In this document: positions 19,016 through 24,000 of the stretch, in pieces
Numbering within the stretch: the stretch's first letter is position 1
How the letters are laid out: each line of letters opens with the position of its first letter
From: Fidelibacterota bacterium
Lineage (GTDB): Bacteria; Fidelibacterota; Marinisomatia; Marinisomatales; TCS55
Length of the DNA: 24,000 bases
Assembly: GCA_036228285.1 (NCBI GenBank)
Contig: JAZAOA010000068.1
Location: 6,921-30,920, forward strand
Direction of reading: 5' to 3'
Position numbers and translations under genes: made by a program
The notes under the pieces: generated by a model
The model's input: the letters and a program-made list of their open reading frames with translations, nothing else
What the model was told of the DNA's origin: nothing
The model's database searches: none

Positions 19016-21931
19016 TTAATTAAATCGAAGTATAGATTTATTTAAAGTATTATGAAATTTTCTACGCACCTGTTTAATGCCAGGATTATTTCGAGTTGGA
19101 TATACTCGATTTGTAAGTAATACTACTACTAGCTCTTGCTCTGGATCTATCCAAAAAGAAGTACCTGTATAGCCTAAATGACCAAATGCTTTATCAGAAA
19201 AATAATCACCTGCACTACTTGTACCATCTCGATCTGGCCTATCCCAACCATATCCTCTGTTTGCTTCATTTACTGTACTCTGTCTTGAAGTAAATAATGA
19301 TATCAACTCTTTATCAATAATTTTTTTATCTCCTATCATTCCATCATTTAATAACATTTGACTATACTTACCAAGATCCTCTGCATTAGAAAATAATCCT
19401 GCATGAGCAGATATTCCGCCAAGCAAATTTGCATTTTCATCATGAACATATCCGTGAGCAGTTTTTCTAGGATATAGATCATAGGATAATGATTTCATCG
19501 GACCGATCAATTCTGATGCAATGCCAGCAATTTTTCTTCTGAGCGAATTCTTTGATGTTCCAATTGGCACAACTGTTCTTTCAGTTGGTGGGATGTCTTT
19601 CCATACATTTGGTGGCGGATTATAAAATGTATTATTCATTCCAAGAGGTGAATAAAACCAACTTTTACCAAGTGCATGGAGATTATTACCGCCTACTCTT
19701 TCTAAAATTGTTCCTAGTAATATCATTCCAAGATCACTGTATTTGTATTCACTACCTGGTTTATATGTGAGTCTTCGATTAATTATATTATCAAGTACCT
19801 CTCCCCTTCCTCTGTATTTACTTTCAAGAAAATATCGATGATAAGCACTAAGTCCAGACTCATGAATTAATAAATGGCGAATGGTAATTGTATCTTTTCC
19901 TGATTGATGAAAACCTGGAAAATAATCATTAATAGGTTGATCAAGATAAATCTCTTTATCATTAACTAACTTCATGATTATTGGAGTAGCAGATACTACT
20001 TTTGTTATTGATGCAAGATCAAAAATAGTTTTTGTGGTAACCTCTTTCGATTTATGATATGTATGATATCCAAAACCTTTAGATATGATTGTATTTCCAT
20101 TTTTCGAAATATAAACTTGTGCACCTGGGAATACTTTAGCTTCTATTGCGCTATCTATAACTGATAGAGAGTAAGAAATATCTAACTTATCAATTATGGA
20201 TTCTTCACGATACACAAGAACTTGGCTGCCTCTAATAAATTGATTATTTAAGTCAACAGGCAAGCGTCCTGTTATATTATTATTAGTTAGTAAAGCATTG
20301 GCAGCAGCCTTTACCAGAACACTACCATATCCAAATGCAGCAATATATGTATCAATATATTCGTAATCTGGTAAATACGGACTACCAAAGCTAGTTACAA
20401 TAAATTGAATTCCTTTTTTATGTAATTTTTTCAATAATTCTGCGTAACTGGGATCAATAGTTGCGATTCCTTTATTCATACGAATTCGTACAACTATTGA
20501 TATGAATGCTAAATCAACATTTTTTAATTTATCTACTATTTCATTAATTTTTTTATCATTTACTTTTTCAGTTATAATAATTTCCATTAAATCTGGATAA
20601 GAACTATTCAACTGATTTTTCATAGGCAACAAATACCTTTGAGAATTTTTATCTTCAGTAATTGATAAGTGCGCAATATTCTTATAATCAGAAATTTTAT
20701 TAAGAAGATCATTTTTATCTTTTACAACAGTAATAGATAACTGAGCCATCTTACTTGCTATATTTAAATGTTTAGGATTACCAATTATCAAATTACTTTT
20801 TTGCCAATCTCTTTTTCCTTTATCTGAGAATAGATTCATTTCTTCCTTTGCCAACCAAATTCTCTCTACTGATTCATCAATCCTTTCTTCCGATATTCTT
20901 CCAGATAGCACTGCTTCTTTTATTGCATGAATGGTTGAATCCACATCAAGAGGTAATAAAATTATATCTGCACCTGCCTCTACTGCTCTCACACACGCCT
21001 CGGAAGACTTGATGTTATTTAAAGCGCCCATCTCCATAGCGTCTGTTACGACTAAACCATCAAACTTTAATTTTTTCCTCAATAACCTATTTGTAATTAC
21101 GGAAGATAAAGTAGCTGGTTTTTTAGAGCGATCAATGCCCGGTGTTATTACATGTGCTGTCATTACCATTTTAACACCATTTTTTATAGAAGATTTAAAT
21201 GGAGGTAACTCAATTTTTGAAAAATCTCTTCTATTTCCTGGAATTACTGGCAATCTAGTATGACTATCTGTTGATGTATTACCATGTCCTGGAAAATGTT
21301 TAACACAAGCGTAAACATTTTGCTCTTGAATTCCCCGAATAAATGAATTTCCAAAAATACTGACAAGACGTGGGTCATCACCATACGATCTAAAATTAAT
21401 AATTGGATTATCTGGATTATTATTTACATCCATTACTGGTGCAAATATCATATTTACTCCAAAGGCTTTTGCTTCCTTGGCAGTAATTACACCCTGTTCA
21501 TATGCCAACACATTTCTTCCTGTTGCTGCTACAGCCATGTTTGTTGGAAATAGTGTCGCTCCATCATACCATTGTCCGAGACCTCTTTCATAGTCAGCAG
21601 CAATAAATAATGGGGTCTCCGACCAACTTTGCGCTATTTGTATTCGATTAAATGTTTCTTCTAATCCACCACCATAAACAACTGCCCCTCCTATTCCCAA
21701 TTCATTAATCCATCTATGAAATTTTTTATATTCAAATGTTGTTTCATTAGTAATGTCGCCTTTTAAGCGAAACATAATCATCTGAGCTATTTTTTTATCA
21801 AGTGAAAGTTTTTGCCAAGGATCCTCAACAATTTCTATCTCTTCTTTGCTTATAAAAGTTTGACACCCAGATATCAACAAGCACAGAAATATGATGATAA
21901 GTTTGGATAAAGTAATTTGATTGTCTTTCAT
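19016..21931 (-). CDS. nagZ: Lipoprotein fusion: GH3 beta-N-acetylglucosaminidase (NagZ, two-domain YbbD type) plus a C-terminal beta-lactamase-fold serine hydrolase (AmiE/YbbE-like MurNAc-L-Ala amidase candidate)
   Basis: 971 aa with a lipobox LISGC at residues ~19-23. GH3/NagZ motifs are KHFPGHGNTSTDSH (Asp-His dyad) and the nucleophile region GLVVTDAMEMG. A middle domain of ~200 aa follows. The C-terminal ~380 aa carry SxxK (ASITK), a Tyr motif (YSDLG) and HLGYTGTS in place of KTG. Confidence 0.9.
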   Translation of the reverse strand: MKDNQITLSKLIIIFLCLLISGCQTFISKEEIEIVEDPWQKLSLDKKIAQMIMFRLKGDITNETTFEYKKFHRWINELGIGGAVVYGGGLEETFNRIQIAQSWSETPLFIAADYERGLGQWYDGATLFPTNMAVAATGRNVLAYEQGVITAKEAKAFGVNMIFAPVMDVNNNPDNPIINFRSYGDDPRLVSIFGNSFIRGIQEQNVYACVKHFPGHGNTSTDSHTRLPVIPGNRRDFSKIELPPFKSSIKNGVKMVMTAHVITPGIDRSKKPATLSSVITNRLLRKKLKFDGLVVTDAMEMGALNNIKSSEACVRAVEAGADIILLPLDVDSTIHAIKEAVLSGRISEERIDESVERIWLAKEEMNLFSDKGKRDWQKSNLIIGNPKHLNIASKMAQLSITVVKDKNDLLNKISDYKNIAHLSITEDKNSQRYLLPMKNQLNSSYPDLMEIIITEKVNDKKINEIVDKLKNVDLAFISIVVRIRMNKGIATIDPSYAELLKKLHKKGIQFIVTSFGSPYLPDYEYIDTYIAAFGYGSVLVKAAANALLTNNNITGRLPVDLNNQFIRGSQVLVYREESIIDKLDISYSLSVIDSAIEAKVFPGAQVYISKNGNTIISKGFGYHTYHKSKEVTTKTIFDLASITKVVSATPIIMKLVNDKEIYLDQPINDYFPGFHQSGKDTITIRHLLIHESGLSAYHRYFLESKYRGRGEVLDNIINRRLTYKPGSEYKYSDLGMILLGTILERVGGNNLHALGKSWFYSPLGMNNTFYNPPPNVWKDIPPTERTVVPIGTSKNSLRRKIAGIASELIGPMKSLSYDLYPRKTAHGYVHDENANLLGGISAHAGLFSNAEDLGKYSQMLLNDGMIGDKKIIDKELISLFTSRQSTVNEANRGYGWDRPDRDGTSSAGDYFSDKAFGHLGYTGTSFWIDPEQELVVVLLTNRVYPTRNNPGIKQVRRKFHNTLNKSILRFN

Positions 21932-22026
21932 TTCATTGCAAAGTTAAATGCTCTCAATCAATCATTCTACATTCAATTCTATTCTTGTTTAAGTTAATCA
22001 CTAAAAATAGATTACAAACATCATTA

Positions 22027-23217
22027 ATGAACTCTAAAGAAAAAGAATATATTGTTGTTGGAGTTGATGGAGGTGGATCTAAAGTATCTGCTGGCATTAT
22101 AGAATCTAATGACAATATAACTTTTACTATCAAATCATTTTCACATCAATACTATAATGAATCAAAAGAATACATTTCAGACTATTCTCCAAAAGATATG
22201 GCTACTCAATTATATGAACATAGTAAAGAGGAATATAATATAAATAATGAAGAAAAACTTCAAGGTAAGGAAATTATAAAATCATTTCATGACACCATCA
22301 TTAATCTAAACGTTGACAAACCCATTTTATTGGGAGTTGGAATGGTAGGTTTAAAAACAAAGGATTTGAGAGGTATTGGAGCAATTGCAAACGGGCCAAG
22401 AATGCCAAAATTTTGTATGGAACTAGAAAACGAATTAAAACAATCCAATGTAAAATTATACAAACCAATTCAATATATTGGAAGTGATGCAGATAACTGT
22501 GGAATTGGAGAAGAATTCGGGAAAGATGGTTTATTTAAAGATGTTCAAAATAGTTACTATATAGGTGGCGGTACAGGTACGGCAGATGCATTAAAACTTC
22601 AAAATAAATTAATACCTTTTGATAATATATCTTCCTGGATTGTTAAGACATGGGAAATATTAAATGATAAAAATATTTGCATGGAAAAATATACTTCCCT
22701 AAAAGGCATACAATCTTTGTATAGTCACTATTCCAACATACCAATTCATACACTTCAGGATAACGCAATTTATGCAAGTGAAATTTTTTTAAGAGCATTA
22801 GAAAATGAACAAGCTGCTTTATTAACTTATCAAGATTTAACAAAATATATGTCTAAATTAATTATAGAACGTATAGAAACAGTGTTTTCTGGTTGGCAAA
22901 ACAATTTTAAACTGTTAAATCCTAACCATAGTATTTTGGATAATAATCACTCATACAGAAATATTTTATTGCAACGTATAATTATAGGTCAAGGTCTAGG
23001 TGAATTATTTCATTTTTCAAAAAATACACCTTTACTTTGGGAGCCATTGCATAATAATATATATAACATGATTGTAAAATCTAAAGCATTACCATTAGAA
23101 GCAAAAAATTCACTCTTAGAAAATAAAACTCTTAAAAAAGATTTTATTATGACATCCAACTTAGATAATTCAGCTCTTTTAGGAGCAGGGATCTCAGCAG
23201 CGCTGAATACATTATGA
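22027..23217 (+). CDS. BadF/BadG/BcrA/BcrD-type ATPase, N-acetylhexosamine (GlcNAc/MurNAc) kinase-like, atypically long
   Basis: Phosphate-1 motif VGVDGGGSK, then GVGMVGL, GSDADNCGIGE and the adenosine motif YYIGGGTGTA. The start is moved to ATG 22027 (MNSKEKEYIVVGVDGGG), because the track start at 21985 is TTG. At ~397 aa it is roughly 100 aa longer than the NagK/MurK-type kinases I recall. Confidence 0.75.
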   Translation: MNSKEKEYIVVGVDGGGSKVSAGIIESNDNITFTIKSFSHQYYNESKEYISDYSPKDMATQLYEHSKEEYNINNEEKLQGKEIIKSFHDTIINLNVDKPILLGVGMVGLKTKDLRGIGAIANGPRMPKFCMELENELKQSNVKLYKPIQYIGSDADNCGIGEEFGKDGLFKDVQNSYYIGGGTGTADALKLQNKLIPFDNISSWIVKTWEILNDKNICMEKYTSLKGIQSLYSHYSNIPIHTLQDNAIYASEIFLRALENEQAALLTYQDLTKYMSKLIIERIETVFSGWQNNFKLLNPNHSILDNNHSYRNILLQRIIIGQGLGELFHFSKNTPLLWEPLHNNIYNMIVKSKALPLEAKNSLLENKTLKKDFIMTSNLDNSALLGAGISAALNTL

Positions 23218-24000
23218 AAAATATTTCAAATAGATTATTTGCGCTTGATTGTTTTCGAGGGCTTACTATTGCTTTTATGATCATTGTTAATACTCCTGGG
23301 AGCTGGTCATATATTTATAGTCCTTTACGACATGCGAAATGGCATGGATGCACTCCAACAGATCTCGTTTTTCCTTTCTTTTTATTTATTGTTGGGGTTG
23401 CAATGCGTTTTTCATTTAATCATTATAATTATGAACCATCTAAAAAGCTGCTTAAAAAAATTTTCTGGCGGACAATAACGATCTTTGTATTTGGTTTAAT
23501 ACTCAATGCGTTTCCATTTATCCGTCAAGATTGGGACTGGTCTACTTTACGCATTATGGGAGTTTTACAGCGCATTGGGCTAGCATATGGATTGGCATCT
23601 ATAATTTCGTTATATATTAAGGTCGATAAAATGTGGATCGCCTGCAGTATTATTCTTATTGGTTACTGGTTTCTATTATTTTTATTTGGAGGAAATGACC
23701 CATACGCACTGAATACAAATTTAGTTCGTACTATTGATATAGCTTTATTAGGAGAAAATCACCTTTGGCTTGGAAACGGAGTCCCATTTGATCCGGAAGG
23801 CTTATTAAGTACTATACCTGCCAGCGTTACAGTTCTTATTGGCTATTTTGTGGGGATGCTAATTCAAAAAAATGAAAATAAAAGTTTGCTTGTAAAAATA
23901 TTAATAATACATGCTGCGCAAATTGCAGCAATCGGGTGGATTTGGGGGTTGTTCTTTCCGATTAATAAACCTCTATGGACGAGCAGCTATGTTTTATATA
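23214..24000 (+). CDS. HGSNAT-like (DUF1624/DUF5009, heparan-alpha-glucosaminide N-acetyltransferase family) polytopic membrane protein; 3' end beyond the window
   Basis: Not in the supplied ORF track because no stop codon is reached. Hand translation from ATG 23214 (ATGA overlap with the kinase stop) gives an open frame to 24000. It reads MKNISNRLFALDCFRGLTIAFMIIVNTPGSWSYIYSPLRHAKWHGCTPTDLVFPFFLFIVGVAM...RIMGVLQRIGLAYG...PFDPEGLLSTIPA...PINKPLWTSSYVLY. The LDxxRG, H-x-x-WHG, DxVFPFF, GVLQRI, DPEGLLST and NKxLWTSSYV motifs are the family hallmarks. Confidence 0.8.
   Translation, partial: MKNISNRLFALDCFRGLTIAFMIIVNTPGSWSYIYSPLRHAKWHGCTPTDLVFPFFLFIVGVAMRFSFNHYNYEPSKKLLKKIFWRTITIFVFGLILNAFPFIRQDWDWSTLRIMGVLQRIGLAYGLASIISLYIKVDKMWIACSIILIGYWFLLFLFGGNDPYALNTNLVRTIDIALLGENHLWLGNGVPFDPEGLLSTIPASVTVLIGYFVGMLIQKNENKSLLVKILIIHAAQIAAIGWIWGLFFPINKPLWTSSYVLY

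Follow-up and report, generated by a model that had tools for sequence, protein, structure and literature searches.

Here, we present an analysis of two overlapping genes at the end of a 24,000-nt stretch of a Fidelibacterota genome (contig C68, positions 6921-30920), in the following called the window, which code for a kinase-like protein and for a membrane protein of the NagX/MurT/HGSNAT family. The genome (G000) has a length of 1.58 Mb and is 74% complete; its phylum is also known as Marinimicrobia, Neomarinimicrobiota or SAR406. With a probability of roughly 0.5, judged from sequence, the membrane protein would acetylate a glucosamine-type amine in the periplasm and the kinase would then phosphorylate the recovered N-acetyl amino sugar. 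We favour acetylation because the membrane protein has the complete set of HGSNAT residues, because the ancestral operon encoded a separate transporter and because of the published genetics of NagX. The coupling of the two genes is, by comparison of gene orders, a genus-specific remnant of a larger operon from which genes for a GT2 protein, a SpoIID homologue and the transporter were deleted.

The two genes and their junction are located as follows.

22027..23217, plus strand: kinase-like gene, 396 aa, unnamed ROK-like ASKHA family (open reading frame, family alignments, structural model)
23214..23217, plus strand: ATGA overlap of the membrane-gene start with the kinase-gene stop (sequence read, ...ACA TTA TGA AAA...)
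23214..24000, plus strand: NagX/MurT/HGSNAT-family membrane protein, first 262 codons of 371 (open reading frame, HGSNAT alignment, tree)

The first-pass annotation of this DNA had reported an open frame from ATG 23214, overlapping the kinase stop and running to the end of the window. Direct reading confirms it, and on the contig the frame closes after 371 codons at C68:31249, 329 nt past the window and without a frameshift. The membrane gene is therefore complete, neither truncated nor frameshifted, which removes the earlier concern that it might break off soon after position 24000 as a pseudogene. For the kinase, an alternative start at TTG 21985 would give 410 aa; ATG 22027 is preferred, since relatives comprise 394-396 aa and start at that ATG. 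No Shine-Dalgarno sequence is visible in the bases before ATG 22027. The ATGA overlap suggests translational coupling of the two genes.

The HGSNAT-like character of the membrane protein, likewise noted before, is borne out by database matches. Human HGSNAT (PDB 8vkj) is matched at E 6e-26 with the catalytic transmembrane domain aligned end to end, and the NCBIfam model NagX (NF046061) at E 6e-50 over the full length. The NagX score of 170.4 bits, against an equivalog cut-off of 480, makes the protein a member of the NagX family and not an equivalog. Hydropathy gives about ten membrane segments. The Pfam model HGSNAT_cat (PF07786) matches the 262-aa window fragment (E 5e-10) and gives no match to the full 371-aa protein (L002:2135-3250) or its orthologues. 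This miss is treated as a filter artefact, and the NCBIfam and PDB matches were relied on instead. Precomputed annotations give only "-" for the gene, and annotation pipelines may systematically miss the NagX-like family.

The roles of individual HGSNAT residues are known from cryo-electron microscopy (PMC11199644). In the alignment, they correspond to the following residues of the membrane protein.

R275 and R345 (coenzyme A (CoA) diphosphate binding): Arg15 and Arg86
M282 (cysteamine contact): Met22
N286 (oxyanion): Asn26
H297 and D307 (catalytic dyad): His40 and Asp50
F310, F313 and F315 (gate): Phe53, Phe56 and Phe58
R372 and E499 (binding of the glucosamine (GlcN) 6-OH and 3-OH): Arg113 and Glu195

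Asp193 is also among the mapped residues. Within the family, His40, Asp50, Arg15 and Arg113 are invariant (53 of 53 members), Glu195 is found in 51 and Asn26 in 41 of the 53. A check of the catalytic His against human HGSNAT had been proposed in the first-pass annotation, and the identity of His40 with H297 answers it positively. None of the HGSNAT residues checked, whether for catalysis or for the binding of CoA and glucosamine, is missing. The likeness to the human enzyme (8vkj/8jkv) thus covers the His-Asp dyad, the oxyanion Asn, the CoA arginines, the gate phenylalanines and the GlcN-binding Arg/Glu pair (PMC11199644). In contrast to the animal enzyme, the window protein has neither a luminal domain nor the first transmembrane segment (TM1), and the side it faces would be the periplasm, not the lysosome.

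NagX, a distant relative of Tannerella forsythia MurT (TfMurT), has been proposed as a transmembrane GlcN transacetylase which works together with a separate transporter (PMC9007349). In relatives of the window, a separate transporter adjoins the NagX-like gene, an arrangement that parallels the NagX-plus-NagP genetics (PMC9007349) and argues for an enzyme and not an importer. The window protein shares with NagX (Shewanella SO_3504 type; PMC9007349) the family, the full-length match, a length of ~370 aa and the catalytic His, as well as a place in amino-sugar operons, paired there with a sugar kinase and with a separate transporter. It differs not only in its 170 bits against the cut-off but also in belonging to a clade apart from the ROK-adjacent NagX-like proteins, which lack an equivalent of Asn26, and in a setting of peptidoglycan recycling instead of chitin or GlcN catabolism. 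The earlier suggestion that the membrane protein re-N-acetylates de-acetylated amino sugars gains support from the conserved residues and from the separate transporter of the relatives, and an uptake role appears less likely than N-acetylation.

Under the acetylation reading, the pair would be what is left, after trimming, of an operon by which the FCB group (Fibrobacteres-Chlorobi-Bacteroidetes and allies) salvages peptidoglycan fragments. The membrane protein would transfer the acetyl moiety of acetyl-CoA in the cytoplasm onto wall fragments or free amino sugar in the periplasm, the likely substrates, and once acetylated these could be processed by NagZ, NamZ and the enzymes downstream. N-acetylglucosamine (GlcNAc) or N-acetylmuramic acid (MurNAc), once taken up, would be phosphorylated by the kinase-like enzyme, probably at C6, and the phosphorylated sugar would enter MurQ and the amino-sugar pathways. 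The substrates, the direction of action and the coupling between kinase and membrane protein are the parts of this scheme that we infer.

Several points weigh against it. The nearest experimentally studied relative is TfMurT, which is reported as a MurNAc importer from complementation of E. coli (PMC5790795, citing Ruscitto 2016). Moreover, the catalytic residues are equally kept in MurT-type proteins, so that their conservation by itself does not tell an enzyme from a carrier. The substrate of the kinase is a guess from gene context, and the canonical ROK kinase that is also encoded in the window (7087-8010) could serve GlcNAc. NagA was not found in the 74%-complete genome, which leaves the downstream route incomplete as assembled. 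Finally, the pair of GT2 and kinase genes stands beside PSP1 and CoaE genes, and not beside wall genes, in 17 of 76 loci, and the core role of the kinase family may consequently not be wall salvage.

The relationship to MurT was resolved by synteny and phylogeny. In a Bacteroidales gene row of the order ampG-namZ-X-murK-murQ, the 279-aa kinase matches T. forsythia MurK, identified as PDB 8OW9 (PMC10465942), at E 2.7e-95, and because of this synteny with a bona fide MurK match, X is taken as a MurT-type protein. It belongs to the same family as the window protein and is 37-38% identical to it. In a maximum-likelihood tree, the window protein groups with the copies from Marinimicrobia operons and with a Bacteroidales subgroup that is 50-55% identical by tblastn (clade support 98/98). 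The MurT-type rows (L102, L110, L108, L111) form a clade of their own (100/99), the neighbour or sister of the window clade, and most ROK-adjacent NagX-like proteins fall into the far half of the tree. ASKHA kinases of three families (ROK, BadF-type MurK and the window family) thus adjoin membrane proteins of three clades. In one Bacteroidales locus close to murQ, the window-type NagX-like gene is followed by a gene for a 475-aa protein in which an APH-type kinase is fused to a RapZ C-terminal domain (L090:41-1468, minus strand).

The idea of a module like murK-murT, put forward in the first-pass annotation, therefore holds for the homology of the membrane protein to MurT-type proteins and fails in two respects: the window protein lies in a separate sister clade, and the kinase is neither MurK nor of the BadF type. 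Common to the window and the T. forsythia murT-murK-murQ operon are a cytoplasmic ASKHA kinase gene adjoining an HGSNAT-like gene and a context of peptidoglycan salvage. The differences are a kinase from another ASKHA family, with no detectable similarity to an orthologue of MurK (a BadF/BcrA/BcrD-type MurNAc 6-kinase, 8OW9), a reversed gene order, an unlinked murQ and a membrane protein outside the MurT clade. The further prediction of murQ just beyond position 24000 failed. When contig C68 was read past the window, no murQ appeared directly downstream of the membrane gene; an SDR gene begins 7 nt after its stop and is followed by genes for a 3-hydroxyacyl-CoA dehydrogenase (3HCDH), AtuA and another SDR. 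The murQ gene of this genome (TIGR00274, 354 bits) is located on contig C16, flanked by genes for an APH-type kinase and a Na:alanine symporter. In the same region (C16:14835-27446), a gene for an SSS transporter with 39% identity to the operon-type SSS lies about 8.5 kb from murQ, and the APH-type kinase is perhaps AmgK-like. Transport may have been taken over by this region as a second salvage locus.

Less probably, the pair works in uptake and trapping as in T. forsythia. The membrane protein would then import MurNAc (or anhydro-MurNAc or GlcNAc), and the kinase, as a non-homologous replacement of MurK, would trap it as the 6-phosphate for the unlinked MurQ. The sister position of the clades at 37-38% identity fits such a function, as does the rescue of MurNAc growth of an E. 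coli murP mutant by TfMurT plus TfMurK (PMC5790795). Furthermore, with murQ and no BadF-type kinase in the genome, the role of a MurNAc 6-kinase is vacant, the loss of the SSS transporter from the operon in this genus would be sensible if the NagX-like protein carries the sugar, the ATGA coupling suggests matched protein amounts, and the residues are the same in MurT-type proteins. However, a pure carrier would not need the catalytic and acetyl-CoA-binding residues, all of which are kept, and substrate transport is not a function of HGSNAT itself (PMC11199644). In addition, a bona fide transporter stands beside the NagX-like gene in the full-length operons, murQ is unlinked to the pair, and the SSS homologue is still present on C16.

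The kinase-like protein is, according to alignments and a structural model, a ROK-like ASKHA phosphotransferase of an unnamed family which fails the defining ROK sequence features. The BadF/NagK motifs ascribed to it earlier could not be substantiated. PF01869 (BadF) has no match on the protein at E up to 0.01, nor anywhere in the genome. Pfam ROK (PF00480) scores 20.1 bits, below the gathering cut-off of 22.9, over a stretch of only 67 residues. NCBIfam returned nothing meaningful and a single-sequence PDB search nothing useful, and a family profile and a fold search were needed. An exhaustive search of 1.84 billion representatives yielded 241 relatives, mostly of ~400 aa; close relatives carry no precomputed Pfam domain and are called "hypothetical" where named. 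The family profile reaches only ROK-type structures in the PDB (3r8e at E 3.4e-5, then NanK and glucokinases). An AlphaFold model based on 74 sequences has a predicted local distance difference test score of 94.4 and a predicted template modelling (TM) score of 0.89, and its best 50 PDB neighbours in Foldseek are all ROK kinases or ROK repressors, with none of MurK, K1058, 1zbs and 1zxo among these 50. Compared directly with a MurK orthologue, itself at E 2.7e-95 to PDB 8ow9, the kinase gives E 2.4 in BLASTP, and the family profile aligns over 13 columns out of register in hhalign. A BadF or MurK identity is ruled out by the missing PF01869 match, the exclusively ROK-type fold neighbours and the failed MurK alignment.

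The model has the same two-domain ASKHA fold as ROK kinases (CHU_1875 3r8e, human N-acetylmannosamine kinase 2yhw, Plesiomonas NagK 7p9l, Streptomyces glucokinase 3vgk), with Foldseek E values of 1e-14 to 1e-13 and a target-normalised TM of 0.61-0.70, and register is kept in the phosphate-1 hairpin, GIGxPG strand, xDAxxxxxGE block with the catalytic Asp, and GTG phosphate-2 loop. In contrast, identity amounts to 14-15%, the Pfam score is sub-threshold, and the ExGH sugar-binding motif and the CxCGxxGC-type zinc site of ROK proteins are not present in the family, which has an invariant W..K.WE block in their place. Aligned with the window's own ROK kinase by hhalign, the strands are in register and the zinc motif CKCGRRGC lacks a counterpart: the corresponding region of the family has no cysteines and instead shows invariant W204, K207, W209 and E210. 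The single invariant Cys of the family is C158.

In the window kinase, the motifs are DGGGSK (phosphate-1), the strand GVGMVGLKT, NGPRMP, GGGTGTAD (phosphate-2) and the C-terminal adenosine motif LGAG. Asp154 (in GSDADNCGIGE), placed after strand 4, aligns with the Asp that is catalytic in the NDA motif of ROK proteins. The family alignments, with 38 and 74 members, revealed the conserved blocks DGGATK, GIGMPGLKT, NGPRIP, LGSDADYCGIGE, YYLGGGTGxADA, W..K.WE, IGQRLG and APALGAG. D14-G15-G16-x-x-K19, G180-G184 and G386 show little or no variation across the 74 sequences and are present in the window kinase, which has all three ASKHA hallmarks (phosphate-1 DxGxT/SK, phosphate-2 GxGTG and a G-rich C-terminal adenosine motif). 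An excess length of about 100 aa, placed after the phosphate-1 motif, had also been noted before. The size stands, with ~95 residues more than in ROK or BadF kinases, and the position in part: ~37 residues, an extra helix-loop after strand 3, precede the GIGMPG strand, and ~46 lie after residue 283 as extra helices in the C-terminal third. Conserved residues in the first insertion are Y43, P55, Q61 and E76. In L071/L136 (G181:C9), the kinase-like gene occurs twice in tandem, with a small NagZ gene in between. One copy has E-G-R..Q replacing D-G-G..K and, given this degenerate phosphate-1 motif, may be a pseudokinase.

In the genome collection, 300 loci encode relatives of the kinase; the listed ones belong to Marinimicrobia, Calditrichota (including Caldithrix abyssi) and some metagenome-assembled genomes of Bacteroidales. 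In a sample of the phylum, the family occurs in 113 of 151 genomes and 41 of 60 genera, usually as a single copy. Gene order was counted in 76 loci relative to the kinase gene.

Directly upstream: soluble GT2 protein, ~510 aa, 64 loci
Directly downstream: SpoIID/LytB-like protein, 53 loci; alternatively PSP1, 17 loci
Second downstream: AmpG-family MFS transporter, 27 loci; alternatively SSS transporter, 16 loci
Third downstream: NagX-like protein, 18 loci; alternatively NamZ, 6 loci

The fuller operon in relatives thus comprises genes for GT2, the kinase-like protein, a signal-less SpoIID/LytB-like protein, an SSS or AmpG transporter, the NagX-like protein and an SDR, and is divergent from a gene for a NagZ/amidase-like lipoprotein. 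The classical SDR of 244-250 aa follows the NagX-like gene just past the window (L002:3257-4003) and in 16 related loci, often as the last gene before a strand flip. In about a fifth of the loci (L057 and 16 similar ones), the GT2-kinase pair is located between NhaC/UbiA and PSP1/CoaE genes without wall-recycling neighbours.

Neither the GT2 nor the SpoIID-like proteins possess a signal peptide or a hydrophobic segment; SpoIID/LytB-like N-termini are hydrophilic and without a membrane segment, as in L009:9127-10410, L016:9183-10505 and L013:7956-10547. In two loci, kinase and SpoIID are fused, with no membrane segment between the domains. The GT2/kinase/SpoIID trio is predicted to be cytoplasmic because of the missing signal peptides and these fusions. 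Known SpoIID/LytB proteins act outside the membrane, so a cytoplasmic homologue would be unusual. In some Marinimicrobia, a small NagZ of 345-353 aa takes the place of GT2. A Bacteroidales cluster with the order GT2, X, lytB, ampG, namZ, murT, murK, murQ resembles the T. forsythia ampG operon, and its slot X (L128:6737-7666, minus strand), compared with the kinase slot in L016 and L068, encodes a 309-aa DUF4922 protein with a faint likeness to diadenosine tetraphosphate (Ap4A) phosphorylase. The candidate identity of the kinase with the second "gtf" gene (Tanf_08355) of the T. forsythia operon was accordingly not upheld, and the kinase family has no match in this Bacteroidales genome. The swaps of NagZ for GT2 and of DUF4922 for the kinase hint at alternative ways to split an imported disaccharide.

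Four other genera of the same family show the NagZ fusion gene in divergent orientation, followed by GT2, kinase, SpoIID, SSS, NagX-like and SDR genes; one genus of the family has a small NagZ where GT2 otherwise stands. The short form of kinase, NagX-like and SDR genes occurs only in the window's genus (G000, G189), including a 75%-identical species common in Tara assemblies. This sister species (many contigs from Tara Oceans and NCBI assemblies) and the same-genus genome G189 have the reduced layout with both reading frames intact, the orthologues of the sister species being 75% (kinase) and 85% (membrane protein) identical to those of the window. GT2 and SpoIID homologues were not found elsewhere in the 74%-complete genome. 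The loss of GT2, SpoIID and the transporter has brought the kinase-like gene into overlap with the NagX-like gene.

Kinase identity is 51-66% between GT2-bearing genera and 38-46% for lineages without GT2; the identity of the NagX-like proteins remains at 56-62%. Of the 97 sites conserved to at least 90% in relatives, 13 are altered in the window kinase (A17G, P107V, R323G, Y363L, A382S, P383A and others), against a median of 2 in the relatives. Such a count might be expected of decaying relics of the deleted operon, but we regard this explanation as ruled out or at most extremely improbable for either gene: both open reading frames are full-length and free of stops, intact orthologues exist in the sister species, and all 13 deviations are common to G189, with core and catalytic motifs unchanged. 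The two species differ at 25% of residues. From the alignment, this looks like a fixed functional shift after partner loss and not like decay, and under the acetylation reading the 13 substitutions would be an adaptation to working without the GT2 partner.

Alternatively, the kinase could be primarily the partner of GT2 in a cytoplasmic glycan or nucleotide-sugar step, for example on imported GlcNAc-MurNAc together with the SpoIID-like enzyme; it would have been repurposed in the window's genus, and the adjacency to the NagX-like gene would be a deletion scar. GT2 and kinase form the most constant pair (64 of 76 loci), which persists outside wall contexts in the 17 loci with PSP1/CoaE. The selective fall in kinase identity without GT2, the replacement of GT2 by a small NagZ and of the kinase by DUF4922 in the Tannerella-like cluster, and the fusions of kinase and SpoIID without a membrane segment are in line with this proposal. 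We nevertheless consider it quite unlikely, as the ATGA overlap and the order kinase, NagX-like, SDR, kept in two species, argue for continued co-expression, and the intact core motifs together with the fixed derived substitutions indicate a protein which is not decaying.

The idea of NagX as an acetyltransferase and its link to MurT are already in the literature. In open-access papers and preprints we found no mention of the kinase family or of its ROK-like nature without the ROK motifs, of how close to core it is in the phylum, of its fixed pairing with GT2 and with a SpoIID-like protein of the cytoplasm, or of the genus-specific reduction; a GlcNAc-MurNAc phosphorylase or a function of the GT2-kinase pair is not described there either. 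A bolder proposal, rather speculative at present, takes the kinase family as undescribed ASKHA enzymes, near-core in Marinimicrobia, which together with GT2 and the cytoplasmic SpoIID/LytB homologue would form a new route for dismantling imported peptidoglycan disaccharides. In the same proposal, the whole NagX/MurT clade, including the "MurNAc transporter", would be acetyl-CoA-dependent transmembrane N-acetyltransferases whose task in the periplasm is to mend wall fragments that have lost N-acetyl groups, the bacterial equivalent of what HGSNAT does in the lysosome.

A large pool of dissolved organic matter in the sea consists of peptidoglycan, and the dark ocean is rich in Marinimicrobia (SAR406). 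If the acetylation reading is correct, a widespread family of "hypothetical proteins", which three quarters of the genomes sampled from the phylum encode and which also occurs in Calditrichota and some Bacteroidales, would be named as a ROK-like amino-sugar kinase lineage that is not covered by curated models. The HGSNAT-type mechanism of acetylating across the membrane would be extended to bacterial cell-wall recycling, and the role of MurT in T. forsythia, a MurNAc-auxotrophic oral pathogen, would deserve re-examination. The reduced two-gene form would provide a natural minimal system for testing the kinase and the membrane protein without their GT2, SpoIID and transporter partners.

Upstream of the pair, two further features were defined.

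19016..21931, minus strand: NagZ (GH3) plus beta-lactamase-fold lipoprotein, 971 aa (open reading frame and family matches; conserved operon neighbour in relatives, divergent from the kinase-like gene)
21932..22026, no strand: divergent intergenic region between the lipoprotein gene (minus) and the kinase-like gene (plus) (sequence read; divergent layout kept in relatives)

The intergenic region presumably holds both promoters; scans for promoters and terminators gave signals no better than in shuffled sequence. Beyond this 971-aa protein, the window represents a peptidoglycan-recycling neighbourhood with genes for a GH18 protein with a type IX secretion system (T9SS) tail, NamZ, PBP4, LdcA, an amino-acid permease, and DUF819 with AnmK.

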